Source: a virus
Reading direction: 5' to 3' (one strand)
IMG/VR virus record: IMGVR_UViG_3300025141_013863
Span: 26,333-90,332 of that record
DNA: 64,000 nt
Part shown: positions 41,869-60,738 of the stretch, piece by piece
How the letters are laid out: each line of letters starts with the position of its first letter
How positions within the stretch are numbered: position 1 is the first letter of the stretch
Made by a program: the position numbers and the translations under genes
Notes under the pieces: generated by a model
Seen by the model: only the letters and a program-made list of their open reading frames with translations
Database searches by the model: none
Told to the model about the DNA's origin: nothing

Positions 41869-42123
41869 ATGGCTAGAAGAAAAAACACAAAATTTATTGA
41901 TCCTCGTTATTTTATGGACGAGAAGGAGGAGGCGCTGAGTGAGGCTACAGATCCCCACGATCAGCCCGCCGGCGGCGAATCGGGCCAAGATGATCCAGAC
42001 AAGATAGAGAAATGTAAAAGTGAAGGTGGAAAATGGAGATACGCCAAAGAGTCCAAAGGCCCCGAATCCAAAAGCTATGATCTCTCTAGAGGCTTGAAAG
42101 GCTATTGCGAAAAAAAGAAATGA
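41869..42123 (+). CDS. Small hypothetical protein
   Basis: AGGAG RBS; ACTATTTAT motif upstream at 41825. Confidence 0.55.
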   Translation: MARRKNTKFIDPRYFMDEKEEALSEATDPHDQPAGGESGQDDPDKIEKCKSEGGKWRYAKESKGPESKSYDLSRGLKGYCEKKK

Positions 42124-42440
42124 AAATCACAAAATCCCAACTTAAACAGATTATTAAGGAAGAGCTTGAAGAAGGCTTAGGGGATATGCTCAAGAAAATG
42201 CGCCGCCGCCATCATATTAATCGCGCTGGTCAAGAAGAAGAGTTCATGAATCAGTATTATATCGACGTTCGTGATGAAGATGGTAGCTTGATAAAAAGAC
42301 ATTCGTATCGAGATCATACTGATGAGTCAGCATGGGAACATGCTGAAAAGCTTAAACGAGAGCTACGTCTCGCCGGAGAAGAGCTTGAGATTATTAAAGA
42401 CACTGAAGACGGAGAGGTCAACTTGGGGTCAATCTTTTAA
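42120..42440 (+). CDS. Leader-family protein 1 (MKITKSQLKQIIKEELEE)
   Basis: ATG 42120 overlaps the upstream stop; carries the shared leader. Confidence 0.65.
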   Translation: MKITKSQLKQIIKEELEEGLGDMLKKMRRRHHINRAGQEEEFMNQYYIDVRDEDGSLIKRHSYRDHTDESAWEHAEKLKRELRLAGEELEIIKDTEDGEVNLGSIF

Positions 42441-42580
42441 TGCTAAGAAAACTTTCACGATATCTTTTTAAGAAAGGCATAAGCGATTTGGAGCTTTTAA
42501 AGATATTGGGAATTCTTGGAATGGCTACATTTGTTATGGGAATGATGCTCTATGGAGCGATCGGGGCACTATTATTATGA
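42440..42580 (+). CDS. 46-aa single-transmembrane protein
   Basis: MLRKLSRYLFKKGISDLELLKILGILGMATFVMGMMLYGAIGALLL; coupled at both ends; below the ORF-track cutoff. Confidence 0.5.
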   Translation: MLRKLSRYLFKKGISDLELLKILGILGMATFVMGMMLYGAIGALLL

Positions 42581-42924
42581 AAATCACAAAAACACAACTT
42601 AAGCAAATTATTAAGGAAGAGCTTGAAGAGGCTGCGGCTTCTTATCCTCTTAAAAACGTAGATCAAGATAGCGTGACTGCAGGCGCCCCCGGCGAGCAAG
42701 CCGTTATGCAAACAAAAAGAGCGCCAAACAAACAAGAAGAAGCATCGCAGCTTTTTGGAGATCGTATGAATATCGACGTATCTATGCATGCTTATCGCAT
42801 AGGTCAGCATTTAGGCGAAGAACACCTTGTTAAAAATGTAGCTAAAGCTTTGCAACTGTCTGCTCCCCATGCCGCCGCGGCAATGATCTTAGGCGCCCAA
42901 CATGGATTTGGGGACGACGATTAG
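42577..42924 (+). CDS. Leader-family protein 2 (MKITKTQLKQIIKEELEE)
   Basis: Shared leader, unrelated body. Confidence 0.65.
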   Translation: MKITKTQLKQIIKEELEEAAASYPLKNVDQDSVTAGAPGEQAVMQTKRAPNKQEEASQLFGDRMNIDVSMHAYRIGQHLGEEHLVKNVAKALQLSAPHAAAAMILGAQHGFGDDD

Positions 42925-42942
42925 TCGACAGTTAAAAAAGTC

Positions 42943-42971
42943 TTGACAACAGATCCCGCATAGGGTATTAT
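42943..42971 (+). promoter_or_regulatory. Sigma70-type early promoter
   Basis: TTGACA (42943-42948), 17-bp spacer, TATTAT (42966-42971), upstream A-tract; GGAGG RBS before TTG 43005. Confidence 0.65.
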
Positions 42972-43004
42972 AATACTAACGGCATAACTACGTCTGGAGG
43001 GAAC

Positions 43005-46000
43005 TTGAAGTTTGCACATATAAGCGATACTCATATCAAAAATCTGAAGTATCATTACGAGTATAGGATTGTCTTTGAACAATTATACGAAACATTACGA
43101 GAACAAGAAGTCGATTACATCGTTCACTGCGGCGACATCGCACACACGAAGACACAAATCTCACCAGAGTTTGTGGAAATGTGTTCTGGCTTCTTCCGCA
43201 ACTTAGCGGAGATTGCTCCCACATATATTATCTTGGGTAACCACGACGGCAACTTAAAGAACAGCAGCCGCCAGGATGCACTCACACCGATTGTGGATGC
43301 GTTAAACTTAGCCGGACTCAACTTGCTCAAAGATTCTGGCGAAACACACTTGGACGATAAGTTCTGCTTGAATGTGCTTTCGGTCTTCGATCGAGAGAAG
43401 TGGATAAAGCCAAGCAACCCAGACAAGATCAACATCGCGCTCTATCATGGCTCAATTAGCAATTGTAAAACCGATATGAATTGGACGATGGTTAATGGCG
43501 AAGACACAATCACAATCTTTGATGACCACGATTTCTCAATGCTTGGGGATATCCACAGGCGCCAGTTCTTGGACGAAGAAGGCCGCGTATGGTACGCAGG
43601 CTCTACCGTTCAACAGAATCACGGCGAGACTAACGATAAGGGAATTCTAATTTGGGATATTAAATCAAAGGATGATTGGGATATTGAGCCGATTGTGCTC
43701 AAGAATCCAAAGCCGTTCTTTACAATCCCTCTCACATTGAAGGGCAGGATGCCCCGCAAGATTGACGTGCCAACTGGCGCCAGACTTCGCCTTGTTAGCA
43801 CCAATAACTTGCCGCTTGATGTTATGCGCAGAGCAATGGATATTGCCAAGCACAGGTTTAAGCCAGAAAGCATTTCGTTTCTGAATCGTGCTAGTGGTGA
43901 GCGCGGGAATGTGCAAGACATTACTGATGGACTGAGAACAGAGAACCTACGAGATCCAAAGATTCAAGAAGAGCTGATGGATGAGTATCTTAAAGACTAT
44001 CAGGTCCCCGCTGAGACTATGGAAAAAGTTTGTGAGCTTAATCGTACTTATAATAAAATTATCGAAGAGAAAGAGGAAATAGCACGAAATGTAAACTGGA
44101 AGCTCAAGTCGTTCCAGTTCGATAATCTATTTAATTATGGAGAAAAGAATGCTGTCAATTTTGATAGGCTTAATGGTATTGTTGGTATTTTTGGAAAGAA
44201 CTTTAGTGGTAAAAGCAGTATTATCGACGCTGCTCTTTATACTCTTTTTAATACAACTTCAAAGAATGAGCGAAAAAACCTCAATGTCATCAACCAGAAT
44301 AAAGATAGCGGACGAGGAAGACTTAAGATTGAGGCCAACAACGCCACGTACACAATTGAACGAGAGTCCACAAAGTACGTAAAGAGATTAAAGGGGGTTG
44401 AAACTCAAGAAGCAAAGACTGATTTAAACTTTGAGATGCGAGATCACATCACTGATGAGGTAATTTCACTTAATGGCACAACACGTAACGAGACTGATGC
44501 AAACATTCGCAAGCATTTCGGAACTATCGATGACTTCATGGTATCGTCGTTGGCCTCCCAACACGGAGCGCTCGCGTTCATTGACGAAGGTTCAACGCGA
44601 CGAAAGGAAATCATTGCGAAGTTCTTAGATCTGGAGGTTTTTGAGAAGAAATTCCGAATGGCAAAGGAAGATTCTGTCGAAGCCAAGGTAATGCTTAAGA
44701 AGCATGAAGATAAGGATTATAATGAGGAGATCGACACCGTGAATGAAATGTTAGAAGATCATCGCGATAGTGTAGTAGCCAATAAATATTTTTGTACCGA
44801 ATTAAGGGAGGGGCTAGCCCTCTTGCAAGATAGTCTGGGCGCCCTAGATACACAAATCTCCGCAATTCCTAACGAGCTTATTGATATCGCCAAACTTCGC
44901 GAAGAACAAAAGGGTAAGACCGAGAAAGTTGCACTGCTTACAGAGAAGATCCGGGAGCAATCGCGAGAAATTACGAGAAAGAAGAGAGTAGTTGATGATT
45001 CTAAAAGTAAGACTAATAAAGTTGACATCGCCAAGTTCATGAAGCTTCAGATGCAGATTGATCAGTTGCGTGAAAAAGAAAAGGAACTCAGAGAAGAACT
45101 ATCCGAGATCAAGAAAAAGGAAAAGCTATTAGAAGAGCACGAATACGATCCGAATTGTAAGTTCTGCTGTGAAAATAAATTTGTTAGGGAAGCTCATATC
45201 GCTGTCGCCAGCAAAGATCTCGCAGAGCACGAACTTCGAAATGCGACAGTTGATTTGAACGCTCTTAATCCAGCCGACGTGTTCACTAAACTTATGGAAC
45301 ACAGCCGCCTCATTGAATTGATTAAGAAGATTGAAGCAGAAACAACGCAAACCGATCTTGAGCGAGAACGCAACAAAACTGTCAAATCAAAGATCGAACT
45401 CGCTCTTAAAGACATCTCTTCGAAGATTGCTGAGTATGAGGACAATAAGGAAGCAATCGAGAACCTTGAGAAGTTGCTCGGCGAAAAGCGTTCTTTAGAA
45501 AAGAGCATCGAGAGCAATAACAAGAAAATCATATCTTGCGAAGAAGAAACACTTGACCTCGTTAAACTTGTGGGCTCCTACGAGCAGCGTGTAGAAACGC
45601 TGCGAGAGCAAAAGCAAGAATATCACGATCTAAGATCTTCATTCGCAGCATACGATTTGTTTATGCGCTGTATGCATCCAAACGGAATTGCTTACGATGT
45701 TATCAAAAAGAAGATCCCAGTAATCAATCAAGAGATTGCCAAGGTTCTCGCCAACATTGTGGAGTTTGAGATTTTCTTTGAGAGTTCTGGCAATAAGTTT
45801 GACATCTTTATCAAGCACCCGCAATACGATGAGCGCCCGATTGAAATGGCTTCAGGTGCAGAGAAAACGATGGCTGCGATGGCTATTCGGTTGGCGCTTC
45901 TATCTGTGTCTTCACTGCCCAAGAGTGATTTATTCATTCTTGATGAGCCGGGAACAGCGCTAGACGAAGAAAATATGGAGGGTTTTATTCGAATCTTGGA

Positions 46001-46121
46001 ACTAATTAAAGTGTATTTTAAGAACGTTTTGCTTATCTCACACCTTGATTCGCTCAAAGACTGCGTTGATATGCAAATTGTTATAGACAAAAAGCGCGGA
46101 TACGCAAGAGTAAATCAATAA
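43005..46121 (+). CDS. Fused SbcD/Mre11 nuclease - SbcC/Rad50 ATPase (gp47-gp46-like)
   Basis: SDTH, GD, GNHD and GDIH phosphoesterase motifs; Walker A GKNFSGKS; coiled coil with CKFC zinc hook; ASGAE signature; Walker B FILDEP. Confidence 0.9.
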   Translation: MKFAHISDTHIKNLKYHYEYRIVFEQLYETLREQEVDYIVHCGDIAHTKTQISPEFVEMCSGFFRNLAEIAPTYIILGNHDGNLKNSSRQDALTPIVDALNLAGLNLLKDSGETHLDDKFCLNVLSVFDREKWIKPSNPDKINIALYHGSISNCKTDMNWTMVNGEDTITIFDDHDFSMLGDIHRRQFLDEEGRVWYAGSTVQQNHGETNDKGILIWDIKSKDDWDIEPIVLKNPKPFFTIPLTLKGRMPRKIDVPTGARLRLVSTNNLPLDVMRRAMDIAKHRFKPESISFLNRASGERGNVQDITDGLRTENLRDPKIQEELMDEYLKDYQVPAETMEKVCELNRTYNKIIEEKEEIARNVNWKLKSFQFDNLFNYGEKNAVNFDRLNGIVGIFGKNFSGKSSIIDAALYTLFNTTSKNERKNLNVINQNKDSGRGRLKIEANNATYTIERESTKYVKRLKGVETQEAKTDLNFEMRDHITDEVISLNGTTRNETDANIRKHFGTIDDFMVSSLASQHGALAFIDEGSTRRKEIIAKFLDLEVFEKKFRMAKEDSVEAKVMLKKHEDKDYNEEIDTVNEMLEDHRDSVVANKYFCTELREGLALLQDSLGALDTQISAIPNELIDIAKLREEQKGKTEKVALLTEKIREQSREITRKKRVVDDSKSKTNKVDIAKFMKLQMQIDQLREKEKELREELSEIKKKEKLLEEHEYDPNCKFCCENKFVREAHIAVASKDLAEHELRNATVDLNALNPADVFTKLMEHSRLIELIKKIEAETTQTDLERERNKTVKSKIELALKDISSKIAEYEDNKEAIENLEKLLGEKRSLEKSIESNNKKIISCEEETLDLVKLVGSYEQRVETLREQKQEYHDLRSSFAAYDLFMRCMHPNGIAYDVIKKKIPVINQEIAKVLANIVEFEIFFESSGNKFDIFIKHPQYDERPIEMASGAEKTMAAMAIRLALLSVSSLPKSDLFILDEPGTALDEENMEGFIRILELIKVYFKNVLLISHLDSLKDCVDMQIVIDKKRGYARVNQ

Positions 46122-46468
46122 TGAAAATCACCAAATCCCAACTTAAACAGATTATTAAGGAAGAGCTTGAGGAAGCCTTAAATGAAGGCCACCGCCTTCC
46201 CGGTTCTGTTTATGATCCGCAGGGCGAACCCGAGATTGCATCTCCTCACAGAAAGAAACCACAAAGAAGCTATGGAAGCGGGATGAGTGATGCCGATAGG
46301 GAAGCTCACGAAAAGCGACAAGCTGAGAGAGATCCCGATAGAGAATATATTGATATGGTAAAAGGCCTTATGCGGAGGATGCCGGGCACACGTGTCCTGG
46401 CCACTGATGAAAAAAATCGAGAACTTATCGCGACGGCCGAACAAGAATTTGAAATGGAGCAACAATGA
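46121..46468 (+). CDS. Leader-family protein 3 (MKITKSQLKQIIKEELEE)
   Basis: Shared leader; first ~50 nt nearly identical to the copy at 42120. Confidence 0.65.
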   Translation: MKITKSQLKQIIKEELEEALNEGHRLPGSVYDPQGEPEIASPHRKKPQRSYGSGMSDADREAHEKRQAERDPDREYIDMVKGLMRRMPGTRVLATDEKNRELIATAEQEFEMEQQ

Positions 46469-47604
46469 GCACAAAAGACAACGATAACGAATTTGATTTT
46501 CTGCCGCCAGCAGAGCCACCACCTTCGTTTAATCAAGAGAAAGATCACTATCATGAAGAAGTTGATGCACAAGATTTCGGAATGGTTGAGGACTTTGGAT
46601 TACAGATGGAATACTCTGATGAAGATCTCCTCCCAGAAAATACTGCTCCTTCCTCTATTAACGTTGGCTTCGTTGGTGTCGGCGGTGGCGGAAACAAGAT
46701 GGCTAACGCTTTCATCGAGCTTGGCTTCAATAAGACATTGCTTGTGAATACCACAGGCAAAGACATTCCGAAGAACGTGGAAGAAGACCACGTTGTTCTT
46801 ATTCCCGATAGCGATGGCATCGGTAAGAATACAGAATATGGAAAGGAAGTATTCACAATGAACGGCGCCGTTATTGAAGACGCGCTCCGCATTAAACTTG
46901 GAAAGGTGGACTGGCTGTTTGTTCTTGCTGGTGGAGGCGGCGGAACTGGAAGTTCTGTGACTGCACTTCACCCGGTATTCGAACGCTATATGAAATCCGT
47001 TCAGTCTTCTGGAAAAGTTGTTTATGTGGTTTCTTGGCCAACAGCGCAAGAAAACCTCAACCCCACAATCGCTCGTAATGCGTTGACGCTGGCAAATGAT
47101 GTTGCTCAGTATCCGCATATTGTTCTCGACAACGAGCGAGCCACTCGCTTGCTACGCGGCAGAATTGGTATGCTTGGTATGTATCCTGTTGCTAATACAC
47201 AATTTGCTAAGTCATTTGCGCAGGTGTTAAAGTTATCAACTGAAGACTCTCCAATCCAATCTTTCGACAGCAAAGATTTGGAAACATGCTTGGGCAATGA
47301 CGGGAGAGCTTTTCTCGGCTCAACCATGATAAAAGATCCAAATACTGGAAAGCTTGGATCGGTGATCCTACACAACTGTATGAATAGGTCTGCCTGCCCA
47401 CCACCTAAAGGAAAAGCTGCAGCCGGCTCCCTAATCTTAGTGGCGTCTGAGGAAATGGTGGCAGATCCAAGAGTTAGTAAAAACATTGAGTCGGCAATCG
47501 CTTATGTCGGCGGCCGATGCGAGACACTATTCTCTGGCGTTTACGTGCGCAAGAATGTGCCTGGATTGATTGCGATACTAAGTATGAATGGATTAACGAT
47601 ATGA
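46465..47604 (+). CDS. Tubulin/FtsZ-family GTPase
   Basis: GVGGGGNK, AGGGGGTGS tubulin signature, LDNE, and a T7-like SFDSKDL loop. Confidence 0.9.
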   Translation: MSTKDNDNEFDFLPPAEPPPSFNQEKDHYHEEVDAQDFGMVEDFGLQMEYSDEDLLPENTAPSSINVGFVGVGGGGNKMANAFIELGFNKTLLVNTTGKDIPKNVEEDHVVLIPDSDGIGKNTEYGKEVFTMNGAVIEDALRIKLGKVDWLFVLAGGGGGTGSSVTALHPVFERYMKSVQSSGKVVYVVSWPTAQENLNPTIARNALTLANDVAQYPHIVLDNERATRLLRGRIGMLGMYPVANTQFAKSFAQVLKLSTEDSPIQSFDSKDLETCLGNDGRAFLGSTMIKDPNTGKLGSVILHNCMNRSACPPPKGKAAAGSLILVASEEMVADPRVSKNIESAIAYVGGRCETLFSGVYVRKNVPGLIAILSMNGLTI

Positions 47605-47858
47605 AACCAGATATGTGGAAAATATTTACACTTGTATTAGGGGCAATTATTATGCCTCTTGCAGGCTGGGTGTGGTCTGTAAATGTAGAAGTATCTCAAT
47701 TAAGAAATGATATGGGAGACTTGGAGCGACAAGTTGCAGAACTTGAAGAGCAGGTTGATGAGCAAGAAGAAGCAACGAGAACACTAATTAGAGTTGAGAG
47801 CGATCTTGCTCACGTTAGAAGTATACTTGATAGAATTGAGGATATTGTAACGCGATGA
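47601..47858 (+). CDS. Membrane-anchored coiled-coil protein
   Basis: TM segment IFTLVLGAIIMPLAGWVWSV then heptad repeats; ATG overlaps the tubulin stop. Confidence 0.55.
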   Translation: MKPDMWKIFTLVLGAIIMPLAGWVWSVNVEVSQLRNDMGDLERQVAELEEQVDEQEEATRTLIRVESDLAHVRSILDRIEDIVTR

Positions 47859-48085
47859 AAACTATTCTTCTATGTCTCATGCTTGCAGCTATTACATTAC
47901 CAATTGATGTAGATAGATTAAAAGCTGATTTATCTGATATGGAGCGGGATGCTTTGGCACTAGAGTTATATTTACAAGACAAGCAAGATCACGAAGATTA
48001 TTGCCCGCATATCAGTTGGAATCAGCCACCACTAAGTACTTATAAAGAGACATTAATATCACATTTGCCAGAAGGATGTAAATAA
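47855..48085 (+). CDS. Small protein with signal-peptide-like N-terminus
   Basis: MKTILLCLMLAAITLP; coupled to both neighbours. Confidence 0.5.
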   Translation: MKTILLCLMLAAITLPIDVDRLKADLSDMERDALALELYLQDKQDHEDYCPHISWNQPPLSTYKETLISHLPEGCK

Positions 48086-48534
48086 TGAAAGTCACAAAAT
48101 CCCAACTTAAGCAGATTATCAAGGAAGAGATAGAAATTCTTTTAGATGAAGGAATCATGGATCGTATCCGCAAAGGATTTGATAAACATGCCCGTTCGGG
48201 ATTTTTTGGGACAGGACCAACAAGCAAAGAGCTAAAAGGAGCAGCCAGGGTTGGAAGGAAGCTTACACAAAGAAGCTCAACACAACAAAAAGCAAAAGAA
48301 TTTGCTAACGAACTTCTTAATCGCGAATACAATAAATTAGAAAATTTATGGCGCGATGATAAGCGAGAGCTTAAAGCTTTGCGGGCTTATGTCGCAAAAC
48401 AAATAGAAAGTTCTGGCCAGGATATATTGGAGACTTTCGTGACAAGCGTTATAGTTAATAGACTACAAGCCGATGAACTTGAAAGTCGTAAGACTGGCGC
48501 ACCCGAACCGGAACCAGAAGGAGAAGACAAATAA
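48085..48534 (+). CDS. Leader-family protein 4 (MKVTKSQLKQIIKEEIE)
   Basis: Shared leader at both DNA and protein level. Confidence 0.65.
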   Translation: MKVTKSQLKQIIKEEIEILLDEGIMDRIRKGFDKHARSGFFGTGPTSKELKGAARVGRKLTQRSSTQQKAKEFANELLNREYNKLENLWRDDKRELKALRAYVAKQIESSGQDILETFVTSVIVNRLQADELESRKTGAPEPEPEGEDK

Positions 48535-48535
48535 A

Positions 48536-49039
48536 ATGAAAATCACACTTGAAAGATTGCGACAAATTGTTACCGAGGAGGTTATCAAAGAAGAGATCGC
48601 GCCAGAAGATGCTCAACGCACTATTGTAGCGTTATTGCAGGGCATCCCACCAAATGTAACCGGCGATATTATGGGCGCCGTGTATGATGAAATGTATGAC
48701 GCCGATGTTTCAGAACCTCAGCCCGAGCCAGAAGAAGAAAGCTTTCCCACAGAGTATCAGCCCGGCGGCGCCGAAGGCGATCGCCCCACGATGGGATTTA
48801 AAGAAGACTTAGAAAAAATCATCCAAGAAGAGTTGGAACAACTTATGAGAGAAGAGACTCCGGTTGGTTCAGATCCTAAAGAAATCACTGCCGCTTTTAA
48901 AGCTGTCCCGGACGAAGCTTCGAAACTGGCCCAGCGAGTCCGCGCCGATATAGTAAAAATGACAGCAGAATCTCCTGCTGATCCAATGTCGGTTGCCACT
49001 ATGGTTGCTGGCCTCATAACAGCAGAGTATAGACAATAA
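48536..49039 (+). CDS. Leader-family protein 5 (MKITLERLRQIVTEE), with an internal LEKIIQEELEQ copy
   Basis: Divergent leader; ATG 48536 follows AAGGAG. Confidence 0.6.
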   Translation: MKITLERLRQIVTEEVIKEEIAPEDAQRTIVALLQGIPPNVTGDIMGAVYDEMYDADVSEPQPEPEEESFPTEYQPGGAEGDRPTMGFKEDLEKIIQEELEQLMREETPVGSDPKEITAAFKAVPDEASKLAQRVRADIVKMTAESPADPMSVATMVAGLITAEYRQ

Positions 49040-49057
49040 AGAAAAAGGAATGAAGTA

Positions 49058-50065: not shown

Positions 50066-50447
50066 CGAACAGGCCAAGCTTGCCGCTATCGAAAAAGCCA
50101 TCGCAGAGAAGTATGGCAAAGAAGCGATCCAGAACCCAAAGGGAAACTGGAACGAAGCTAAAGAGAAGAGCTATCTTCAACAATCTCAAAAATTTTATAA
50201 GAAACAATATAAAAATGAGGAGTGGCAAGAAAAAATAGATGTTAATGGGATTAAGATCTCAAAAAAACTACTTAATAGAGAATCTTTAAAATGTTGTCCT
50301 GTTTGTGATCGCCTTTCTAAGGAATCTATGGATGATGTTTGTCTCATCAAGTTTGGTTGTTGCAACAGTTGTTACGTCCAGCATGTTGAGGGAAGGGAAG
50401 AAAGATGGATAAACGGATGGAGACCAGAACCAAATGAAACTAAGTAA
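50058..50447 (+). CDS. Hypothetical zinc-binding protein
   Basis: CPVC and CCNSC motifs. Confidence 0.55.
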   Translation: MSDEQAKLAAIEKAIAEKYGKEAIQNPKGNWNEAKEKSYLQQSQKFYKKQYKNEEWQEKIDVNGIKISKKLLNRESLKCCPVCDRLSKESMDDVCLIKFGCCNSCYVQHVEGREERWINGWRPEPNETK

Positions 50448-50694
50448 ACAAATTCTCAAGGAAGCAATCAGAGACGCCATGGACGAGGCTGTGAGTGCCC
50501 AGGAACTTACAAAGTCTGCCAAGTCCAAAGAGGCCCAAAAGGAAATGGGCGCCCTCACCCCGCGCGAGCGTAATATTTTGCAAACCCTCCAGCAAGTACA
50601 AAAAGCCATGTCAGGCAAGGGTGAGCAAGCTACCCCCAAGGTTACCAGACTGGTGCAGCTGATGGTAGACGAACTACAAAAAGGAGCAGAATAA
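50434..50694 (+). CDS. Small protein with divergent leader (MKLSKQILKEAIRDAMDE)
   Basis: Leader-like N-terminus. Confidence 0.5.
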   Translation: MKLSKQILKEAIRDAMDEAVSAQELTKSAKSKEAQKEMGALTPRERNILQTLQQVQKAMSGKGEQATPKVTRLVQLMVDELQKGAE

Positions 50695-51254
50695 TGGCCA
50701 AGAAAAAAGAACCAGTTTCAGTTTTAGATATTGTTCGTGGCTTGGCCCAGGCCGCCGCGAATGCTTATGACGGGGCGCTAACAGAAGATGGAGACGCGCT
50801 CAAGGCCGGCCTCCAAAGAGAAGAAGGAAACCCGCTGCTTGATAAGAGGGTTTTAGATGGCTTTGGTGTATCTTTTTATGGGCCCATGATGTGTATTAAA
50901 TATCATTCCGAAGTCCAACTAAAAGAAGTATACGCTAACGGATTTGAGGGCGACATGGATCAAAGAATAGCAGACATTTCTTCGTTTCTTAAGAAAGAGT
51001 ATCGTAAAGTTACCGGCAAATCTGTAAGCCTAACGAAAGAAGGCGAGATAGACATACATGTAGAGAGCACATCGAGAGTCCGCTCATGGGTCACAGCAAA
51101 ACAGCATTATAAAATTGGTGGTATGGAAGACGTTGTAGTGGTTGGAGAAGCTTCCGAGGACAGACTTGAGGCCGGCTGGCGCAGCTTTCTCGATCAGGGC
51201 GGTCTAGGTAAGCGACCCAAAAACGATACAAGACCAAAGCCAAAAAATGATTAA
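50694..51254 (+). CDS. Hypothetical protein upstream of the terminase
   Basis: AAGGAG RBS, coupled to terL. Confidence 0.55.
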   Translation: MAKKKEPVSVLDIVRGLAQAAANAYDGALTEDGDALKAGLQREEGNPLLDKRVLDGFGVSFYGPMMCIKYHSEVQLKEVYANGFEGDMDQRIADISSFLKKEYRKVTGKSVSLTKEGEIDIHVESTSRVRSWVTAKQHYKIGGMEDVVVVGEASEDRLEAGWRSFLDQGGLGKRPKNDTRPKPKND

Positions 51255-52840
51255 TGAGCTTTCAACTAGACAAGAAAGAAAGAGTAAAAGAGATTCTTAA
51301 GTGTGGAAAAGATCCCTCTTACTTCCTTAATAACTACGCAAGAATATCGCACCCATTACATGGACTTATTCTTTTTAACACTTTCGACTTCCAAGATGAC
51401 CTCTTGGAAAATTTTAATGATTATCGTTTTAATGTTATTCTAAAAGCGCGCCAGCTTGGAATCTCAACGATCACCGCAGGTTATATCGTATGGATGATGT
51501 TGTTTCATCGAGACAAGGCTATTCTCGTTATGGCTACCAAATTTGCGACAGCTGGAAACTTAGTTAAAAAAGTCAAGAGCATCATGCGCAATGTTCCAGA
51601 TTGGCTGAAGATTGCAAAGATTAGTGTCGACAACCGCACATCTTTTGAGCTTTCTAATGGTTCTTCGATTAAGGCCGCCTCGACTTCTGGCGATGCTGGT
51701 CGTTCAGAGGCATTGTCCCTTCTTGTTCTTGACGAGGCTGCCCATATCGAAAACCTTGAAGAGCTGTGGACTGGTCTATATCCTACGCTTTCTACTGGTG
51801 GTCGCTGCATTGCCCTATCAACGCCGAACGGTGTTGGTAACTGGTTTCATAAAACGTGCACGGACTCCGAAGCCGGCACGAACAACTTTAATCTTACAGT
51901 GTTGCAGTGGGATGTTCACCCCGAAAGAGATAAAGACTGGTACAAGAAAGAAACAAAAAACATGTCCAAGAGACAGATTGCACAAGAACTCGAATGTAAC
52001 TTTAACACTTCAGGTGAGACAGTCATCGATCCAGAATGTATGGAATACTTATTATCCACAATTTGCGAACCAAAGCATAGAACCGGCTTCGATCGCAATT
52101 TTTGGATATGGGAAGAATTTGATCCTACCTGCAATTATTTAATGGTTGCCGATGTTTCTCGCGGCGACGGTGCAGATTTTTCTACATTTCATATCGTTAA
52201 ACTTGAAACGCTAGAAATTGTGGGAGAGTATCAAGGCAAGCCAACAATTGATATGTTTGCGAATATGCTAAACAGCGTTGGGAGAGAATTTGGTGGCTGT
52301 ATGCTTGTGGTCGAGAATAACAATATTGGATATTCTGTATTGGATAAACTTATAAATGATTTTCGATATCCAAATGTTTATCATTCGATTAAGTCAACAC
52401 ACGAATATATTGAACAACATCAGGCTGAGATAAGAAATTCGGCAGTTCCAGGGTTTACCACTTCGATGAAGACGCGCCCTCTCATAATAGCCAAATTAGA
52501 GGAGTTTATCAGAAACAAACTAATTACGATATATTCTTCTCGCACAACTAATGAGATGAAAACTTTTATTTGGAGGAATGGTAGGCCGCAAGCAATGAAA
52601 GGCTACAATGATGATTTAATTATGGCGCTCGCAATTGCATGCTGGGTAAGAGACACAGCATTGCAGGCAAATGCAAGAGATTTAAATTATCAAAAGGCTT
52701 TTGTTAATGCGGTTTATACTACAAGAACCACCATGAATACTCAAATCAAAGGTCAACAAGGCTACAAAAGAAATGAAGTTTTTGATAAAATGACTGAAGC
52801 AGAGAAAATGTACACACAATATAAGTGGATCATAAAGTGA
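51254..52840 (+). CDS. terL: Terminase large subunit (T4 gp17-like)
   Basis: KARQLGIST Walker A, LLVLDEAAH Walker B, STPNG, ADVSRG and DDLIMA nuclease motifs. Confidence 0.95.
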   Translation: MSFQLDKKERVKEILKCGKDPSYFLNNYARISHPLHGLILFNTFDFQDDLLENFNDYRFNVILKARQLGISTITAGYIVWMMLFHRDKAILVMATKFATAGNLVKKVKSIMRNVPDWLKIAKISVDNRTSFELSNGSSIKAASTSGDAGRSEALSLLVLDEAAHIENLEELWTGLYPTLSTGGRCIALSTPNGVGNWFHKTCTDSEAGTNNFNLTVLQWDVHPERDKDWYKKETKNMSKRQIAQELECNFNTSGETVIDPECMEYLLSTICEPKHRTGFDRNFWIWEEFDPTCNYLMVADVSRGDGADFSTFHIVKLETLEIVGEYQGKPTIDMFANMLNSVGREFGGCMLVVENNNIGYSVLDKLINDFRYPNVYHSIKSTHEYIEQHQAEIRNSAVPGFTTSMKTRPLIIAKLEEFIRNKLITIYSSRTTNEMKTFIWRNGRPQAMKGYNDDLIMALAIACWVRDTALQANARDLNYQKAFVNAVYTTRTTMNTQIKGQQGYKRNEVFDKMTEAEKMYTQYKWIIK

Positions 52841-52847
52841 GGAATAG

Positions 52848-54860
52848 ATGGCACCAATAAACCCAAAACAAGGAAAAAACCCTGCAAATAGATCATCAAT
52901 GCTTTTTAAATCATTGACAAGATTGTTTTCGGGCCCAATTGTAAATTATAGATCTCAATCGGGTCGAAGAATTAGAAGACAGCATTTAGATAAATTCTCC
53001 TCAAGATTTAAATCTGCATCGGGACAACAGTTTAAAAAATCTTTATATAATCCCCTGGATCAAATTTCAACTAATGCAATCGCGAATCAACGTAGGGCTG
53101 AGCGTTATGTGGATTTTGATCAAATGGAATATATGCCAGAGATTGCATCTACGATGGACATTTATGCCGATGAAATGACGACCTATTCATCTCTTCGACC
53201 GATGTTAAACATTAAATGTCCTAATGAGGAGATTAGGGCGGTCCTTGATGTTCTTTATGAAAATATTTTAAATGTTCAATACAACTTATTTGGTTGGGCT
53301 CGCACGATGTGTAAGTATGGAGACTTCTTTTTATATTTAGATATAGATGAAAAGTTTGGTATTAAATCAGTAATTGTGCTGCCCCCTACGGAAGTTGAAA
53401 GATTAGAGGGATTAGATACAACTAATCCAAACTATGTCCAGTATCAATGGAACTCCGCTGGAATGACATTTGAAAATTGGCAAATTTCTCATTTTAGAAT
53501 TTTAGGTCACGATAAGTATGCCCCCTATGGCACATCTATTCTTGAGCCTGCACGCCGCATCTGGCGCCAGCTAACGCTTATGGAAGACGCAATGATGGCA
53601 TACCGTGTCATTCGTTCTTCTGAGAGAAGATTATTTAAAATTGATGTTGGCGCCATTCCTCCGCAAGAGGTAGAGCAGTACATGCAAAAGATTGTAACGC
53701 AACTTAAGCGTCATTCGGTTGTTGATTCTGCAACCGGCCGCATGGATTTACGCTATAATCCAATGTCTATTGAAGAAGACTATTTTATTCCCATCCGGCC
53801 TGGATCGGCGACAGACATAGTAAACCTTGCAGGAGGCTCAAACACTACGCAGATTGATGACGTTAAGTATCTTCGCGATAAGCTTTTTTCGGCATTGAAA
53901 ATTCCTCAGTCGTATCTTACAATGGGCGAGGGTGCCGAAGAAGACAAGACAACTTTGGCACAAAAAGACATTAGATTTGCAAGAACAATTCAAAGATTAC
54001 AGAGAGTTATAGTATCAGAGCTGGAAAAGATTGGAATTGTTCATCTTTATACGCTTGGGTTCAGAGGAGATGATTTGCTGTCGTTTAGTCTGGCTTTAAA
54101 TAATCCGTCAAAGATTGCAGAACTTCAAGAGATAGAGCATTGGAAGGCTAAATTCGATATTGCCGGCGGCGCCACCGAGGGATTCTTTTCTAGACGTTGG
54201 GTTACGGAGCATATTTTCGGCATGTCTCATGAGGAATTTATACGCAATCAGCGCGAAATGTATTATGACCGCAAGCAAGATGCAGCGCTTCAGGCCGTAG
54301 CCGAAGCCGCAGCTGCAGAAGGTGCAGCCGGCGGCGGCTTAGGTGCAGATGCCGGCGGGGGTCTCGGTGGTGATCTCGGTGGGGATCTCGGTGGGGATCT
54401 CGGCGGTGATCTTGGCGGCGGCGAAGAGATGCCAGCTGGAGAAGCCGGCGCCGAAGAAGCCGGCGGCGAAGATTCAGCTCTACTGGCAGTCCCTCCAGGA
54501 TCTAGAGATTCACCACGTTTAACTCCAAGATCAAAAGGCAAGGCTTATTATCCTGTTAAAAGGGATAAGAGGGCTAGCGGAGCAAGAACACGATCTTATG
54601 CATCGAAATATTCAAAAGAAAAGAGCAGTGCCGCCTTAAGAAATATTATGCCAGGAATACAGGATATTGGCTCTATTGCAAAAATGGGTGGCCTTGCTAC
54701 TGGTATTTATGAACAAGATGAGTCTATTTATAATTTGAGAGAGCAATCAGAGGAAAAGAAACTTTTTAAGGTTAATGAATCTATTCGTAATCTTTTGAAA
54801 GGTTTGGAAGATAATAAGAAAACAATAACGGAACAAAAAGATGAGAATAAAGCACAATAA
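52848..54860 (+). CDS. Portal protein (T4 gp20-like)
   Basis: LMEDAMMAYRVIRSSERRLFKIDVG, EEDYFIP, YLRDKLFSALKIP, DIRFARTIQRLQ. Confidence 0.92.
   Translation: MAPINPKQGKNPANRSSMLFKSLTRLFSGPIVNYRSQSGRRIRRQHLDKFSSRFKSASGQQFKKSLYNPLDQISTNAIANQRRAERYVDFDQMEYMPEIASTMDIYADEMTTYSSLRPMLNIKCPNEEIRAVLDVLYENILNVQYNLFGWARTMCKYGDFFLYLDIDEKFGIKSVIVLPPTEVERLEGLDTTNPNYVQYQWNSAGMTFENWQISHFRILGHDKYAPYGTSILEPARRIWRQLTLMEDAMMAYRVIRSSERRLFKIDVGAIPPQEVEQYMQKIVTQLKRHSVVDSATGRMDLRYNPMSIEEDYFIPIRPGSATDIVNLAGGSNTTQIDDVKYLRDKLFSALKIPQSYLTMGEGAEEDKTTLAQKDIRFARTIQRLQRVIVSELEKIGIVHLYTLGFRGDDLLSFSLALNNPSKIAELQEIEHWKAKFDIAGGATEGFFSRRWVTEHIFGMSHEEFIRNQREMYYDRKQDAALQAVAEAAAAEGAAGGGLGADAGGGLGGDLGGDLGGDLGGDLGGGEEMPAGEAGAEEAGGEDSALLAVPPGSRDSPRLTPRSKGKAYYPVKRDKRASGARTRSYASKYSKEKSSAALRNIMPGIQDIGSIAKMGGLATGIYEQDESIYNLREQSEEKKLFKVNESIRNLLKGLEDNKKTITEQKDENKAQ
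54366..54413 (+). repeat. 4 x 12-bp tandem repeat encoding GGDL in the portal C-terminal tail
   Basis: ggtggtgatctc ggtggggatctc ggtggggatctc ggcggtgatctt. Confidence 0.9.
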
Positions 54861-55671: not shown

Positions 55672-56197
55672 GATTGGCCCCGGCGCGAACGATGCAAAAG
55701 TTCGCCTGGAGATGGACGTTCGTAAAAGTATGAACGGCGATTTAATGATTTTTGATCATGGCGATATTGATATTGTTCTTTCTACTGCTAAAAATAAGAT
55801 TATTGCATTTCCAAAAGACACAATGAACGATTTGGTTTATGGTGCGCAAAATAGATTATTTGCTCATCTTCGCAAAAAAGGATTAATTATTCCCGAATCA
55901 ATCCAGGGGGGCTCTTTTTACGGCTCTTTTGAGGCAACGATGGAACAGGCATCGTCAGAAGAATTAAGTACTCCTAAAATGTCGCTTATTAATATATCAA
56001 AATTCATTGATGAGGAGCGACCCTATTTTGAGTCAACAGAGGCAATTGTTTCTATAACAGATGATGAGCTATCGCACCCCGATAAAGAAGACTCTACTGA
56101 ACTTGGAGAAGTTCCCCAGAGAGCACAGCAGGGTTCCATTAGAAAGGGCTACGTTCGCGATCCATATTCTTTGAATTATTTATATACATTTGAGTAG
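55655..56197 (+). CDS. Hypothetical protein
   Basis: 180-aa ORF in the head operon. Confidence 0.55.
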   Translation: MAIIIKIGPGANDAKVRLEMDVRKSMNGDLMIFDHGDIDIVLSTAKNKIIAFPKDTMNDLVYGAQNRLFAHLRKKGLIIPESIQGGSFYGSFEATMEQASSEELSTPKMSLINISKFIDEERPYFESTEAIVSITDDELSHPDKEDSTELGEVPQRAQQGSIRKGYVRDPYSLNYLYTFE

Positions 56198-56208
56198 GAG
56201 ATTTTTAA

Positions 56209-56520
56209 ATGTCAGAACTCTTAACGTTTATACTGTGCGCCTATGGACTAACACAAATTCTTGTCTATGGTAAGATTTTTTCTAGACTAAGGCCCAAGAA
56301 AGGCAAACTCGGAGAATTAGCAAATTGTCCCATGTGTATGGGTTTTCACGTTGGGTGGATTTTAATGCTACTTTCTCCGTTTACGGAACTATTTAGTTTT
56401 GATGTAACTGTATTCAATTTCTTCCTTTTAGGGTCTTTGTCGTCAGGTACATCATACATACTCAATATGATTTTCGGAGACAATGGAGTTAAATATGAAT
56501 ACAAGAACATGGACGAATAA
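56209..56520 (+). CDS. Membrane protein with CxxC (DUF1360-like)
   Basis: Hydrophobic helices flanking LANCPMCMGFHVG; AGGAG RBS. Confidence 0.55.
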   Translation: MSELLTFILCAYGLTQILVYGKIFSRLRPKKGKLGELANCPMCMGFHVGWILMLLSPFTELFSFDVTVFNFFLLGSLSSGTSYILNMIFGDNGVKYEYKNMDE

Positions 56521-56565
56521 GTGGATGTTGCAGCCTGTACGGCGTTGCTGTAAAGGATCGTGACT

Positions 56566-56988
56566 ATGAAAATGACAAAAAAACAACTTAATAACATTAT
56601 TAATGAAGAGATCGAATCTATGATTCAGAATGGAGAGATCGATGAGGGTTTCCTTGGCCGCACAGCAACCCGCGCCCGAGCTGCCGCTGGCAAGTTAAAA
56701 GATAAAGTTGCCGGCACCTACAAGGGCGGCATGGCCGGCCTAAAAGGAGATGTCAAAGGCGTCGAGGCCGCCATGGCCCAGAAGAAAGGCGCCGAAAAGA
56801 AAGCCCTTGCAGTTAAGGCCGCCCGAACCGTCCGAGCCCACTCAGAGGCCATGCAAAAAGATCTCGATGCGCTAGGTGTGCTTGAGATATATCCCGAAGT
56901 GCGAAGGGCCATTGACGCACTGAACAAAGTTGTTCAAGGAGAGATTGGCCAAGCAGCTGGCATTGCAGATAAGCCTGGAGTTAAATAA
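56566..56988 (+). CDS. Leader-family protein (MKMTKKQLNNIINEEIE)
   Basis: Leader variant, then EIDEGFLG and an Ala/Lys-rich body; immediately before the protease. Confidence 0.6.
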   Translation: MKMTKKQLNNIINEEIESMIQNGEIDEGFLGRTATRARAAAGKLKDKVAGTYKGGMAGLKGDVKGVEAAMAQKKGAEKKALAVKAARTVRAHSEAMQKDLDALGVLEIYPEVRRAIDALNKVVQGEIGQAAGIADKPGVK

Positions 56989-57597
56989 GTGGGCAAAAAA
57001 CTTTTACGAGAATACTATGAACTCTGTGAAGGAGGCATCTGTCAAGATCTTCTAACTGAAGAAGAGAAAAGATATGTCGCCAATGGCGGCATGATTTTGT
57101 CTGGAAAGCTACAAGAGGCAGATATTCAAAATGGTAATGGTAGGATTTATCCCCATCGTGTTTTGATGCGCGAGATGAAAAACTACGAGAAGCTTGTAAA
57201 AGAAAAGAGGGCCCTCGGTGAATTAGATCACCCTGAAGACTCTGTTATTAATCTTAAAAATGCGTCTCACTTGGTAACAGACGTGTGGTGGGACAACAAG
57301 AATGTAATGGGAAAAGTAAAAGTTTTAGACACTCCCTCTGGTCAAGTTTTAAAAAGTTTAGTTAGTTCGGGCGTAAAGCTCGGCATCTCTTCTCGTGGAA
57401 TGGGCTCTGTACAAGAAAGCGCTGGCCAAACAATTGTTGAAGATGATTTCCAATTAATATGTTTTGATTTTGTTTCTGAGCCTTCTACTCCTAATGCGTT
57501 TATGATGCAAGAAGCAAAGGGCTTCAATAACAAGGTGTTCACAAAGGCAGACAGAATCAATAGACTATTAAATGAGGTTTTGGAAAATGACAAATAA
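56989..57597 (+). CDS. Prohead core protease (T4 gp21-like)
   Basis: NGNGRIYP, ALGELDHP, GISSRGMGS, FDFVSEPSTPNA. Confidence 0.92.
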   Translation: MGKKLLREYYELCEGGICQDLLTEEEKRYVANGGMILSGKLQEADIQNGNGRIYPHRVLMREMKNYEKLVKEKRALGELDHPEDSVINLKNASHLVTDVWWDNKNVMGKVKVLDTPSGQVLKSLVSSGVKLGISSRGMGSVQESAGQTIVEDDFQLICFDFVSEPSTPNAFMMQEAKGFNNKVFTKADRINRLLNEVLENDK

Positions 57598-60316
57598 ATG
57601 GTCAAGCTTCGGTACCGATCAGAAAATTATGAATGACTGGAGAGCCTATATGACGGGCGACAAGGTTGAGGGTTGGTATGGCTTAGTTAAGGAAGAGTAC
57701 AGCAAGTTATTGCTGGAAAGTGGCCGGCCCGATCTACTAGAAGAGGGCTTTTGGGAAAAAGCCAAGTATTATATGGGCAAATTCGGCTCTCTTGAAAAGG
57801 GGGGTAAAATATTTGGCCGCGGCAAGGCCGAGCGCGAGGCTAAGTTAAAATTAGCCAATGCAATAGATAATGCCTCTAATAAGCTTGTCAAAGATCTTAA
57901 CGCTAAGATGAAGGAAGAGTTCCCTGAATTCCCCAACATGGAGAAACAGGAAGACTGGGTAAAGGCCCTATTAAACATTGGAGCTGTATATGATTCTATT
58001 GTGGCTGCAACTGAAAAAGATCCGAAAGATCCTGAGTACTTGGATTCGCACTCCGCGAATTCAGTTATTGAATCCCTTAGACTATATACGCGACACCAGC
58101 TTGACTATAAGTTGTCAGATATTTATAAGCACTTCAAGGAAGGCCTCGACAGAGAAGCTAATAAGAAAATAAGCGTTCGCTTATACGAACAAGAGGGCCA
58201 AGCCCCAACGACCGCGAAAGATTGGCAGCAACGCAGTGCTCGCGGGAAAGAAGCTCCTTATACTAAGAGAGGCCGCGTTGGCGGCAGAACAGAAGACGAA
58301 TCAACAGTCATCAAGGGATTAGAAAGTAATGTTTTTCCTGCTCTTTTAGCGGCCGGCGGCGCCGTTGGTATTTTGGCTGGCCTAGTGCTTCAGACTGATT
58401 GGTTTAAGGGCCTTGTAACCAAAACAGTTGAACCAGAATACATTAAACAAACTGGCGAAGTCAACAAAGAAGCCCTTGATCAAATTGAAACAAATCTGTC
58501 CCCCCAGGAAGGCGAGGGAGTTACTCAGATGATGGGTCGAGTTATGGAGGGCGATCCAACGCACTTTGGTCCAGACACTCCAATTAGTGAACTGCAGTCT
58601 GCCATGACAGAGAAAGGTATTACTCCGGAAGACTTATCGAAACTTTCAAAAGACCCTGGTCAATTTATGGAAGCATGGGGCGAAGCAACTAGCGGAGCAG
58701 ATCCTAGCTCTAGTTTGTCAGATGTCTTTGGTGGAGGCGGCGATGTTACTACTGTTGTCAAAGATGTGGTAAAGCAGGCTCCGGATTTTTCTAATTTAAC
58801 TGTTGCCGGCGCAGCCGAGCAATTTCAAAACTTAAACCCAGCACAGATAGAAAAATTTAATGCTATTACTCAGCAGATCGGGTCAAACACCGGCATGCCC
58901 GCCTATGATGCATCAAATGTTGCTAAATTACTAAACGATCCGGCAACGCTACGGGCCCACGGCGCCGCCTCAATGTGGACAGGCAAAGCAGGCATCGGGG
59001 ACTCCAAGTCGATGCAGACCATTGGAGCTGCTTTGGCCGCAGTACAAGATACCGGCGCCGAACAAGTAGTAACGCAGGTCGCGGCCCCGGACACTAGACT
59101 ACACTTAATGCTTGGCAAGAAAGTTGTGAGCACGCTCACAACAAAAATCAAGTGGACTGCAACCAAAACCATTGTTACAAAAATTGGCGGCGGTAAAGCA
59201 ATGACCGCAGCCGGCTCTGCTGCAGTCGCGGCCGGCCCCCTGATAGCCACCATGGGTCTCGGTTTGTTTCTCAGCGGCGCCGCAGTTAAACTTATTCGAA
59301 TTAAGGGAATGAAGTCCTCAAGAGCACAAATGCTAAAAGATCTGTTGCAAGAGCTGGTTGATGTCACAGGGAAAGATGATCCAGACCCCGATGAGTGCGA
59401 GCCGCCGCGTGTTAAAAATGAAGCCGGCGAATGTGTGTGTGAGAATCCAGATGGCACTATTCCAGAATCTGAAGAAGAAGCACTAAAAGAATGGGATGAA
59501 AAATCTAAAGAATGTATCTGCAAGCCATTTGATTGTCCCGAGGATAAAGTTCCAGATCCGGAGACGTGTAAGTGTGTTGACAAGCCTGAGCCCGACCCCG
59601 ACCAAAAGACAAAGCCGGGTATCGCAGTGTTGGATGATGATGAGGTATCTATTTTCCGAATTCGCTGGAGAGACAAGGATAAAATTGATGCACAAGTCGA
59701 TATTTATAAGGCGGCCCAGGAGGCTCCAATCATCGGCCGCGGCACCGAACCCGAGTCGGATCAGGTCGCGAAGCCCAGTTCGGAATTCCGTCCGTTTCAG
59801 GCTGATAGAAAGACCTTCGCCCAGATTAAAAGAGCAGCCAAGGGCAAGACCGGCATGGAACCATTCTTTGCTATCGACGGAAGCGTTATCAAAGATTTGG
59901 CAAACAAAAGCGGCAAATCTGATGGTGCAAAGCTCTCCCGCGCAGGCCTAGGAAAGACAGCCGCCATTCGCATAGTTCGTAATCTGTTCAGGAACATGCT
60001 AAGGAACGAAAGGAAGGCTAGCGAAAAGATGGCCCGCTATCAGCTTCGCCGGGCGAAGATCACAGATGAAGAGCAGGTTGATAAAGCTCTTGCTCAGCTG
60101 CGAGCATATGGTTTAGTACAGCCGGCCGCTGGAGCCAAGAAGGCGAAGAAGCGCAGAGAGAAGGCAACCGGGAAAGTGAAGCGAGTAGCCGAGGGCACCC
60201 GCCGGCGCAAGCCATGTAAGAACTGCAAAAAGAAGAAGAAACTGCAAGAGTCTAAAAAGACAGATCCGTGGGATAGCATTCGTGCTCGTATGAAAGAACT
60301 TTCGGGAATCAAATGA
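57587..60316 (+). CDS. Large hypothetical protein with two hydrophobic segments and Cys-rich repeats (alternative start 57572)
   Basis: TM-like segments at ~58330-58390 and ~59210-59296; C-x-C repeats at 59390-59580; basic C-terminus. Confidence 0.55.
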   Translation: MTNKWSSFGTDQKIMNDWRAYMTGDKVEGWYGLVKEEYSKLLLESGRPDLLEEGFWEKAKYYMGKFGSLEKGGKIFGRGKAEREAKLKLANAIDNASNKLVKDLNAKMKEEFPEFPNMEKQEDWVKALLNIGAVYDSIVAATEKDPKDPEYLDSHSANSVIESLRLYTRHQLDYKLSDIYKHFKEGLDREANKKISVRLYEQEGQAPTTAKDWQQRSARGKEAPYTKRGRVGGRTEDESTVIKGLESNVFPALLAAGGAVGILAGLVLQTDWFKGLVTKTVEPEYIKQTGEVNKEALDQIETNLSPQEGEGVTQMMGRVMEGDPTHFGPDTPISELQSAMTEKGITPEDLSKLSKDPGQFMEAWGEATSGADPSSSLSDVFGGGGDVTTVVKDVVKQAPDFSNLTVAGAAEQFQNLNPAQIEKFNAITQQIGSNTGMPAYDASNVAKLLNDPATLRAHGAASMWTGKAGIGDSKSMQTIGAALAAVQDTGAEQVVTQVAAPDTRLHLMLGKKVVSTLTTKIKWTATKTIVTKIGGGKAMTAAGSAAVAAGPLIATMGLGLFLSGAAVKLIRIKGMKSSRAQMLKDLLQELVDVTGKDDPDPDECEPPRVKNEAGECVCENPDGTIPESEEEALKEWDEKSKECICKPFDCPEDKVPDPETCKCVDKPEPDPDQKTKPGIAVLDDDEVSIFRIRWRDKDKIDAQVDIYKAAQEAPIIGRGTEPESDQVAKPSSEFRPFQADRKTFAQIKRAAKGKTGMEPFFAIDGSVIKDLANKSGKSDGAKLSRAGLGKTAAIRIVRNLFRNMLRNERKASEKMARYQLRRAKITDEEQVDKALAQLRAYGLVQPAAGAKKAKKRREKATGKVKRVAEGTRRRKPCKNCKKKKKLQESKKTDPWDSIRARMKELSGIK

Positions 60317-60738
60317 AGAAAAATGATCTAAAGGCCTTAATTAAGCCTCTTGTCAAAGAGTGCATTCACGAGGTTCTTCTGGAAGAAGGGCTTCTCTCCA
60401 ACGTTGTAGCAGAAGTTGCAAAAGGGATGCAGGGAAATCTTGTTGTTGAAGCTCAACAAAAGTCGGCCAACCACATAGTCAATGAGGACTTGCAAGTTAA
60501 ACGCAGGTCGCAAGAAGCTAGAGCCAAGTTGAAAGCACATCGCGCAAAGTTAATGGATACGATTAATGCTGGGGCTTATAATGGTGTTGACTTGTTTGAG
60601 GGTACCGCTCCGATGAGTTCTTATGAGACCTCATCACCCAAGGGCGGCTCTGTTGATTTGGGCAGTCCGAAGGATGCAGGAGTCGACATCTCTTCATTGG
60701 TAGGCGGCGCCTCTCAAATTTGGAAAGCAATGAAATAG
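60313..60738 (+). CDS. Hypothetical protein with leader-like N-terminus (MKKNDLKALIKPLVKECIHEVLLEEG)
   Basis: Amphipathic K/E leader variant. Confidence 0.55.
   Translation: MKKNDLKALIKPLVKECIHEVLLEEGLLSNVVAEVAKGMQGNLVVEAQQKSANHIVNEDLQVKRRSQEARAKLKAHRAKLMDTINAGAYNGVDLFEGTAPMSSYETSSPKGGSVDLGSPKDAGVDISSLVGGASQIWKAMK

Follow-up and report, generated by a model that had tools for sequence, protein, structure and literature searches.

Why do several small proteins of otherwise unrelated sequence begin with nearly the same peptide in a T4-like phage, and what might this peptide be for? The question is raised by a DNA stretch of 64,000 nucleotides (nt), called here the window, that covers positions 26,333-90,332 of the IMG/VR record IMGVR_UViG_3300025141_013863, i.e. 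the 3' 64 kb of a 90,332-bp viral contig. The source is an uncultured, marine, T4-like phage; the contig is 49% complete according to CheckV and lacks the major capsid protein (MCP), and the genes of the window are all on the + strand. An initial annotation, made from the letters alone, had noticed a common leader in four open reading frames (ORFs), had listed diverged versions in four others and had proposed that it is a tag for packaging diverse payloads into the capsid. Our analysis points in the same direction: the leader is probably a capsid-targeting propeptide in the style of T4, removed by an S77 protease. The genes concerned are the following.

42120..42440, + strand: canonical-leader gene, 106 aa, N-terminus MKITKSQLKQIIKEELEE; acidic body with an isoelectric point (pI) of 5.1
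42577..42924, + strand: canonical-leader gene with an unrelated body, 115 aa, N-terminus MKITKTQLKQIIKEELEE
46121..46468, + strand: canonical-leader gene, 115 aa, N-terminus MKITKSQLKQIIKEELEE; full-length orthologues in marine metagenomes
48085..48534, + strand: canonical-leader gene, 149 aa, N-terminus MKVTKSQLKQIIKEEIE
48536..49039, + strand: diverged-leader gene of a conserved family, 167 aa, N-terminus MKITLERLRQIVTEEV
48800..48853, + strand: internal leader-like helix of the 48536 protein, KEDLEKIIQEELEQLMRE, with the copy KIIQEELEQLMRE at residues ~92-106, at the conserved/variable junction
50434..50694, + strand: doubtful member, 86 aa, weak N-terminus MKLSKQILKEAIRD; accessory insertion, not in the related genome G001
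56566..56988, + strand: diverged-leader basic protein, 140 aa, pI 9.6, N-terminus MKMTKKQLNNIINEEIE; directly upstream of the protease
60313..60738, + strand: conserved head-module protein, 141 aa, weak leader resemblance MKKNDLKALIKPLVKEC; orthologues in relatives

Scans in six frames, of the window as well as of the contig as a whole, confirmed that MK[IV]TK[ST]QLKQIIKEE[LI]E opens the ORFs 42120, 42577, 46121 and 48085 (all +), and they confined the leader to the 42120-56566 region, on the + strand without exception. The near-identity of the leader DNA at 42120 and 46121 was also borne out, with only one base different in the first 45 nt. The DNA of the leader genes is alike from the ATG to ~+54, where the similarity ends, and nothing is common upstream. 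As annotated, these genes are slotted between core genes, their starts packed onto the neighbouring stop codons with a spacing of -4, -1 or +1 nt; the neighbours in the window are a DnaG-type primase, an SbcCD fusion, a tubulin/FtsZ homologue, TerL, a T4-type portal and the S77 prohead protease. The list of diverged versions stood only in part. The 48536 gene stays in it, internal copy included, and its family has an N-terminal module, then the second leader-like helix and then a C-terminal part that varies among members. The 56566 gene stays as well: its family is conserved and adjoins the protease gene, with 32% identity over 132 aa to the copy of genomes G014 and G017, where the orthologues are found just after the protease, and it is missing from some metagenome relatives. 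Every relative whose sequence covers this part of the head module has an orthologue of 60313 at the corresponding place (E 2e-23 for the copy in G001), and 60313 is therefore a core head gene and not leader-swapped cargo. The 50434 gene probably has to be removed too; its slot is occupied by a canonical-leader gene in metagenome relatives. Chance can be excluded as the origin of the recurrence, since the 1,841 proteins of related loci hold 301 occurrences of the core motif [IL][IV]xEE[LIVMFY], vs 5.35 in shuffles.

The leader peptide has 15-22 residues, would form an amphipathic helix and follows the logo M K I T K [ST] Q L K Q I I K E E [LIV] x x h h x E. Third codon positions are variable (0.7-1.1 bit vs ~2 at the first two positions), and leader genes have a GGA Shine-Dalgarno signal at -12 to -9 of the ATG, indicating that the peptide is the conserved thing and that the ATG is a real start. 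The GGAG ribosome-binding sites suggest a host with Shine-Dalgarno initiation. Selection on the leader acts at the peptide level. A DNA-level repeat was set aside because synonymous sites vary, and the high charge of the leader spoke against the signal-peptide and membrane-helix readings, which were dropped. A back-translated pattern of the 15 leader residues was searched in IMG/VR contigs and matched at least 118 stretches. The resulting set of related loci (118 loci, 1.05 Mb) contains 268 leader ORFs with a median length of ~115 aa. Among 1.84 billion representatives at 50% identity, a 30-position profile of the leader found 13,814 clusters (E <= 0.001), and 18 long contigs have 1-9 copies each, mostly arranged in arrays and never off the coding strand. 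The leader was met only in viruses: 185,579 prokaryote species, each represented by one genome, gave no exact match, and no description of the peptide string was found in the searchable full-text literature.

The bodies behind the leader are unrelated. Pairwise BLASTP of the window bodies from residue 21 on gave nothing better than E 0.35, and the 204 distinct tagged proteins of the related loci make 139 body clusters, with lengths of 50-611 aa and some families of 15-22 members. Profile-profile comparison (hhalign) among the eight largest body families gave a probability of 12% at most, so that the homology of bodies by which the annotation could have been refuted was not found, and its proposal of a leader recombined onto diverse payloads agrees with these data. 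Pfam found one single match, FliG_C, in the 139 body representatives; neither Pfam nor PHROGs gave anything usable on the eight window proteins, and the 42120 body has no relatives in either. The only recurrent payload domains of Pfam were seen in a few long leader-bearing database proteins (P0074, P0084, P0090), which have PF14083 alone or with PF19846. Full-length orthologues of 46121 range down to ~40% identity and keep the leader nearly invariant. The AlphaFold2 model of this family (mean predicted local distance difference test 73.9, predicted template modelling score 0.39) has a helix (residues 5-21), then a linker of low confidence (22-56) and finally three helices. Foldseek searches with the model against BFVD gave nothing below E 0.4 except a 23-column match to the leader only. 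On these comparisons the leader is a portable peptide tag carried by more than 130 unrelated small bodies in related phages.

The portability of the tag also shows at its borders. Dozens of marine metagenome contigs match only the ~45 nt of the leader and diverge exactly at its limits, with breakpoints before 42118/42120, 42577 and 46120 and behind 42167, 42620 and 48129. The junctions include a leader gene directly after the tubulin gene, a locus with no 56566 and a leader-only mini-ORF. The summed depth of all marine metagenome contigs aligned to the window rises 5-8 fold in the bins that hold leaders; these contigs, being unfit to rank genes by depth, were used only for junctions. Synonymous sites of the leader are more alike within a locus (0.69) than between loci (0.60), a value reached in 0 of 500 permutations. 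In genome G001 (157.7 kb, 87% complete) the gap between primase and SbcCD that matches the 42120/42577 slot is occupied by four tandem leader genes with other bodies, and the segment 46121-49039 and the 50434 gene are missing. Hence the payload turnover foreseen in the initial annotation does occur, with different bodies at syntenic positions, and the tagged genes turn over at fixed hot spots beside head and packaging genes. The tubulin/FtsZ gene with its flanking leader genes (46121-49039) can be described as an accessory block absent from G001. The strongest database matches are proteins with two to four leader copies between payload-sized segments, some of the copies lacking the Met (...ENKITKSQLAQIVQEEL...). 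These polyprotein copies, together with the copy at the internal junction of 48536, fit the role of a processing site.

Which enzyme could do the processing? The protease and other head and packaging genes of the window are as follows.

51254-52840, + strand: large terminase TerL, within the 51254..54860 pair
52848-54860, + strand: T4-type portal (PF07230, E 9e-75)
56989..57597, + strand: prohead protease, S77 family, T4 gp21 type (PF03420, E 2e-31)
57572..60316, + strand: large post-protease protein, 914 aa, which follows the protease

The product of 56989, already taken for gp21-like in the annotation, is a true S77 protease of the gp21 type, 35% identical to T4 gp21 and with the His and Ser motifs kept (GEL(D/N)HP, GELDHP here, and SSRG are aligned). 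S77 is carried by 9 of the 9 leader-bearing contigs estimated to be at least 52% complete. Small proteins with a diverged leader directly adjoin the protease gene in seven of the 13 genomes compared (this window, G001, G003, G006, G007, G014 and G017). The cleavage consensus of gp21 is (I/L)-x-E. The leader does carry it: I12-K13-E14 is invariant, and L-x-E is frequent at 16-18 and 20-22, so placed in the window copies that its Glu is residue 18 or 22; Glu is found at position 22 in 43% of 219 leaders. In T4, according to PMC5694885, gp21 strips N-terminal targeting propeptides of 10-20 residues off the internal proteins (IPs) and Alt, several sites per propeptide being common. The leaders in the T4 record are MKTYQEFIAE (IPII, IPIII) and MKTFKEF...ITE (IPI). 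By analogy, the leader helix, set off from the body by a flexible linker, would dock the protein to the core of the assembling prohead; the S77 protease would then cut the leader at I12-K13-E14 and at the L-x-E that ends at residue 18 or 22; and the body would remain in the head until it exits together with the DNA when a cell is infected. All these steps, from docking through cleavage and packaging to injection, are what we infer from the genomes, and so is any anti-defence role of the payloads.

Tagged proteins that survive in a prohead together with a protease cutting at (I/L)-x-E would be expected to have bodies that avoid this motif. They do avoid it. The observed/expected ratio of [LI]xE is 0.91 in the 139 representative tagged bodies vs 1.27 in untagged proteins of 70-300 aa and 1.16 in untagged proteins above 300 aa from the same loci, and the ratio of ratios between tagged bodies and small untagged proteins is 0.71 (bootstrap confidence interval, CI, 0.59-0.84). 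The same bodies have [LI]xD, [LI]xQ, [LI]xK and [LI]xN at 1.42-1.49 and show no depletion of [VM]xE, [FYW]xE or AxE. A replication with 218 leader-bearing database proteins, leaders masked, gave 0.80 (CI 0.73-0.88) for [LI]xE over [LI]x[DQK] vs 1.09 (CI 1.03-1.16) in the controls. Scaffold-like proteins behave in the opposite way: the ratio is 1.71 in the gp22-like scaffolds of the lineage and 3.11 in the 60313 family, as in degraded core proteins. The MCPs of the lineage have 2.42. The large post-protease protein family is as poor in the motif as the tagged bodies (0.92), which makes it a candidate internal head protein. T4 gives comparable figures, with 2.33 for gp22, gp67 and gp68 together, 0 observed vs 2.8 expected in mature IPI-III, 1.51 in gp23* and 1.20 in 37 other T4 proteins. 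A degraded core rich in [LI]xE, a cargo that survives poor in it and a folded shell indifferent to it make a pattern common to the proven T4 system and this lineage, on evidence that is statistical and indirect but specific to the motif of the protease.

The neighbourhood of the leader genes was surveyed by clustering 1,220 untagged proteins from the 118 loci. TerL heads the count of neighbours (68 loci), together with three small membrane proteins (56-68), a TerS-like gene (62) and the portal (55); SbcCD (34), tubulin (30), protease (23) and primase (20) come next. No modifying enzyme recurs beside leader genes in these loci. Several other features of the head modules deserve mention. At 60746-60988 the window codes for an 80-aa, extremely Lys/Arg-rich protein, conserved at its head-module position in nearly all the relatives examined, which may be a DNA-binding internal head protein. 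An N-terminal motif W-x-x-[FY]-[LM] (NDWRAYM, ENWRNFL, GWRGYL, NWKKFL) recurs on the large post-protease protein (57572-57700) and on several others, located in the L135-L137 and L134 head modules and at 9941-11422 and 156470 of G001; it may be another leader class. G001 also contains a tandem of seven or eight genes of ~60 aa starting with MKVGDLV or MKTGDVV (G001:C1 4397-5649), a separate family of small paralogues. Upstream of its leader array, at ~80913-81238 (minus strand) of G001:C1, there is a gap ending in a tRNA- or tmRNA-like 3' end (GGTTCGACTCCCGG...CCACCA); no tRNA was found in the window.

The closest known system is the capsid-targeting sequence (CTS) of T4, removed by gp21 from IPI, IPII, IPIII and Alt. 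Both are short N-terminal peptides on unrelated small proteins and contain (I/L)-x-E, the marine genome has the gp21-type protease, the T4-type portal and the terminase, and in both the mature bodies are poor in the motif and the core proteins rich. They differ in that the marine tag is longer (15-22 residues vs 10-19), almost invariant across thousands of families and also present as internal and polyprotein copies; in the charge of the bodies, mostly acidic in the marine phages and basic in T4; and in numbers, with the 13,814 clusters facing about ten known T-even IPs. The T4 prohead core protein gp67 (L119 38782-39024) has the string DLIKEEK, matching the marine core [IL][IV]xEE; by a rough estimate the chance of such a match among eight T4 head proteins is ~0.02. 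T-even IPs have in common only the capsid-targeting leader and are otherwise diverse anti-restriction proteins, as stated in PMC3012670 and PMC12373910, and each of T4 Ip1-3 blocks one GmrSD nuclease according to the latter source. Polymorphic ip loci of T-even phages are described there (Repoila et al. 1994, as cited in PMC12373910) as hot spots between conserved genes, with differing genes that have only the packaging leader in common. The marine hot spots likewise hold differing leader genes between conserved genes, although at other places, in the primase-SbcCD gap and ahead of the terminase cluster.

Giant phages offer a second comparison. PMC5694885 describes many inner-head proteins of phiKZ, 201phi2-1 and SPN3US with N-terminal propeptides cut at x-x-E by a T4-related protease, as well as paralogues with identical N-termini, and the multiple sites per propeptide are thought there to aid clearance. 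Their propeptides, however, are mostly longer than 100 residues, the motif is S/A/G-x-E, and the proteins make paralogue families instead of having unrelated bodies. As for cellular systems, the marine leader can be likened to the cargo-loading peptides of encapsulins. These too are short conserved peptides that steer diverse cargo into an HK97-fold shell, but they are usually C-terminal, uncleaved and part of a cellular nanocompartment rather than a virion.

The timing of expression was approached through promoter-like motifs, of which the following were found in the window.

41825..41834, + strand: late-promoter-like motif ACTATTTATT, 43 nt upstream of the 41869-42120-42577 run
42943..42971, + strand: sigma-70-like promoter TTGACA-17-TATTAT, in the gap upstream of SbcCD
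36833-36842, 60991-61000, 61649-61658, 56175-56184, 54723-54732, 41825-41834, 15210-15219 and 33627-33636, + strand: sites of the motif ACTATTTAT[AT]

Sites of ACTATTTAT[AT] stand 25-120 nt ahead of structural genes, and the motif is enriched 10-11 fold in intergenic gaps. At a distance of 25-50 nt it precedes sheath-, tube-, scaffold- and baseplate-like genes in G001 and the ORFs 36860, 61030, 61717 and 56209 in the window, and one copy heads the run formed by 56209, 56566 (up to 56988) and the protease. Judging by this placement it is probably the late promoter of the lineage, a variant of the TATAAATA of T4. The T4 form itself was not found on the coding strand near leader genes, and the match to a gp55-like late sigma factor is weak.

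Several of the data weigh against a cleaved capsid-targeting propeptide. The window leader MKITKSQLKQIIKEE has no sequence homology to MKTYQEFIAE/MKTFKEF, only M-K and amphipathicity being common, and tblastn with a 115-aa protein and the 24-aa leader found no leader in 50,697 records of cultured phages. Some 30 copies of the core helix II[KQ]EE[LIV] stand inside a protein or close to its C-terminus, which shows that the helix does not serve strictly as a signal of the N-terminus. The leader also seems far more conserved, and longer, than a mere address needs. The bodies are acidic in 66% of the cases (median pI 5.1; 5 of the 8 window proteins), with mature T4 IPs at pI 9.0-9.7. The genes 46121, 48085 and 48536 belong to a gap-free run that goes from the sigma-70-like promoter upstream of SbcCD into terminase and portal, and in the related loci ACTATTTAT[AT] is found upstream of 7.9% of leader genes vs 8.9% of their neighbours. 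Finally, the depletion of [LI]xE is statistical and weaker in the replication set, and the MCPs are not depleted, which limits the avoidance argument to accessible, loosely folded proteins.

Some of these observations would suit the main rival to the propeptide, an uncleaved docking or oligomerisation helix for another phage or host partner (a chaperone, a takeover hub, a membrane complex), unrelated to packaging, with payloads that act inside the infected cell. The internal and near-C-terminal copies of the motif, the acidity of most bodies, unlike the T4 IPs, and the fact that half of the window copies stand in the run of the sigma-70-like promoter with SbcCD and tubulin would all agree with it, and the conservation of all 15 leader positions, polar ones included, suggests an extended binding interface. 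Such a helix, however, gives no account of why bodies should avoid [LI]xE and scaffold-like proteins be enriched in it, of the placement beside terminase, portal and protease, or of the diverged-leader proteins that flank the protease gene, and we consider it unlikely, though the most serious of the alternatives. A leader working mainly as a nucleic-acid element (a translation-initiation cassette or a recombination site), with the peptide as a by-product, would explain the greater synonymous likeness within a genome, the contigs that break exactly at the leader borders, the leader-only mini-ORFs and the biased codon choice in the leader. It is very improbable given that the amino acids are nearly invariant while synonymous positions vary freely across the family, that the internal copies without Met still keep the peptide and that nothing is conserved upstream of the ATG; recombination at the leader is compatible with a portable peptide tag and does not replace it.

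The bodies are small, helical or disordered and alike in composition, and some make families of 15-22 members, so they might be thought to derive from one fast-evolving paralogue family diverged past recognition, in which the N-terminal helix alone was conserved. Empty BLASTP and profile-profile comparisons between body families, the span of body lengths, the tag on polyproteins and at internal junctions and the sheer number of clusters at 50% identity make this more improbable still. Least credible of all is that a modifying enzyme recognises the leader, as in systems of ribosomally synthesised and post-translationally modified peptides (RiPPs). One leader on many cores does resemble the logic of RiPP precursors, yet the bodies are proteins of 50-600 aa and not short cores, and Pfam shows no maturase nearby; this reading, including its radical-SAM version, was removed because no modifying enzyme recurs among the neighbours.

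We therefore return to the capsid-targeting propeptide and to what it would mean. The kind of biology is already known from the T4 CTS and the polymorphic ip loci; what is new is the sequence of the tag, the scale and the architecture with polyproteins and internal copies. A wider proposal, which we advance only tentatively and which may well not hold in full, is that a lineage of uncultured marine T4-like phages uses a near-invariant leader to load a huge, fast-turning repertoire (~13,800 clusters) that includes leader-punctuated polyproteins cut by the protease. The tagged genes would then be the largest known pool of phage-injected effectors, findable by a string of 15 residues. If the leader does serve for loading into the capsid, a plain search by sequence would yield candidates for the injected proteins of ocean phages by the thousand. 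The tagged proteins would be the first to meet the host, as their T4 counterparts, which disarm restriction systems, and part of the viral "dark matter" would become a defined functional class. The T4 trick of three internal proteins would appear scaled up by orders of magnitude, polyproteins included, and the leader, as a portable tag, could be used to package foreign proteins into the heads of marine phages. The [LI]xE test, with cargo depleted and scaffold enriched, would give in turn a general and experiment-free predictor of exposure to the prohead protease.

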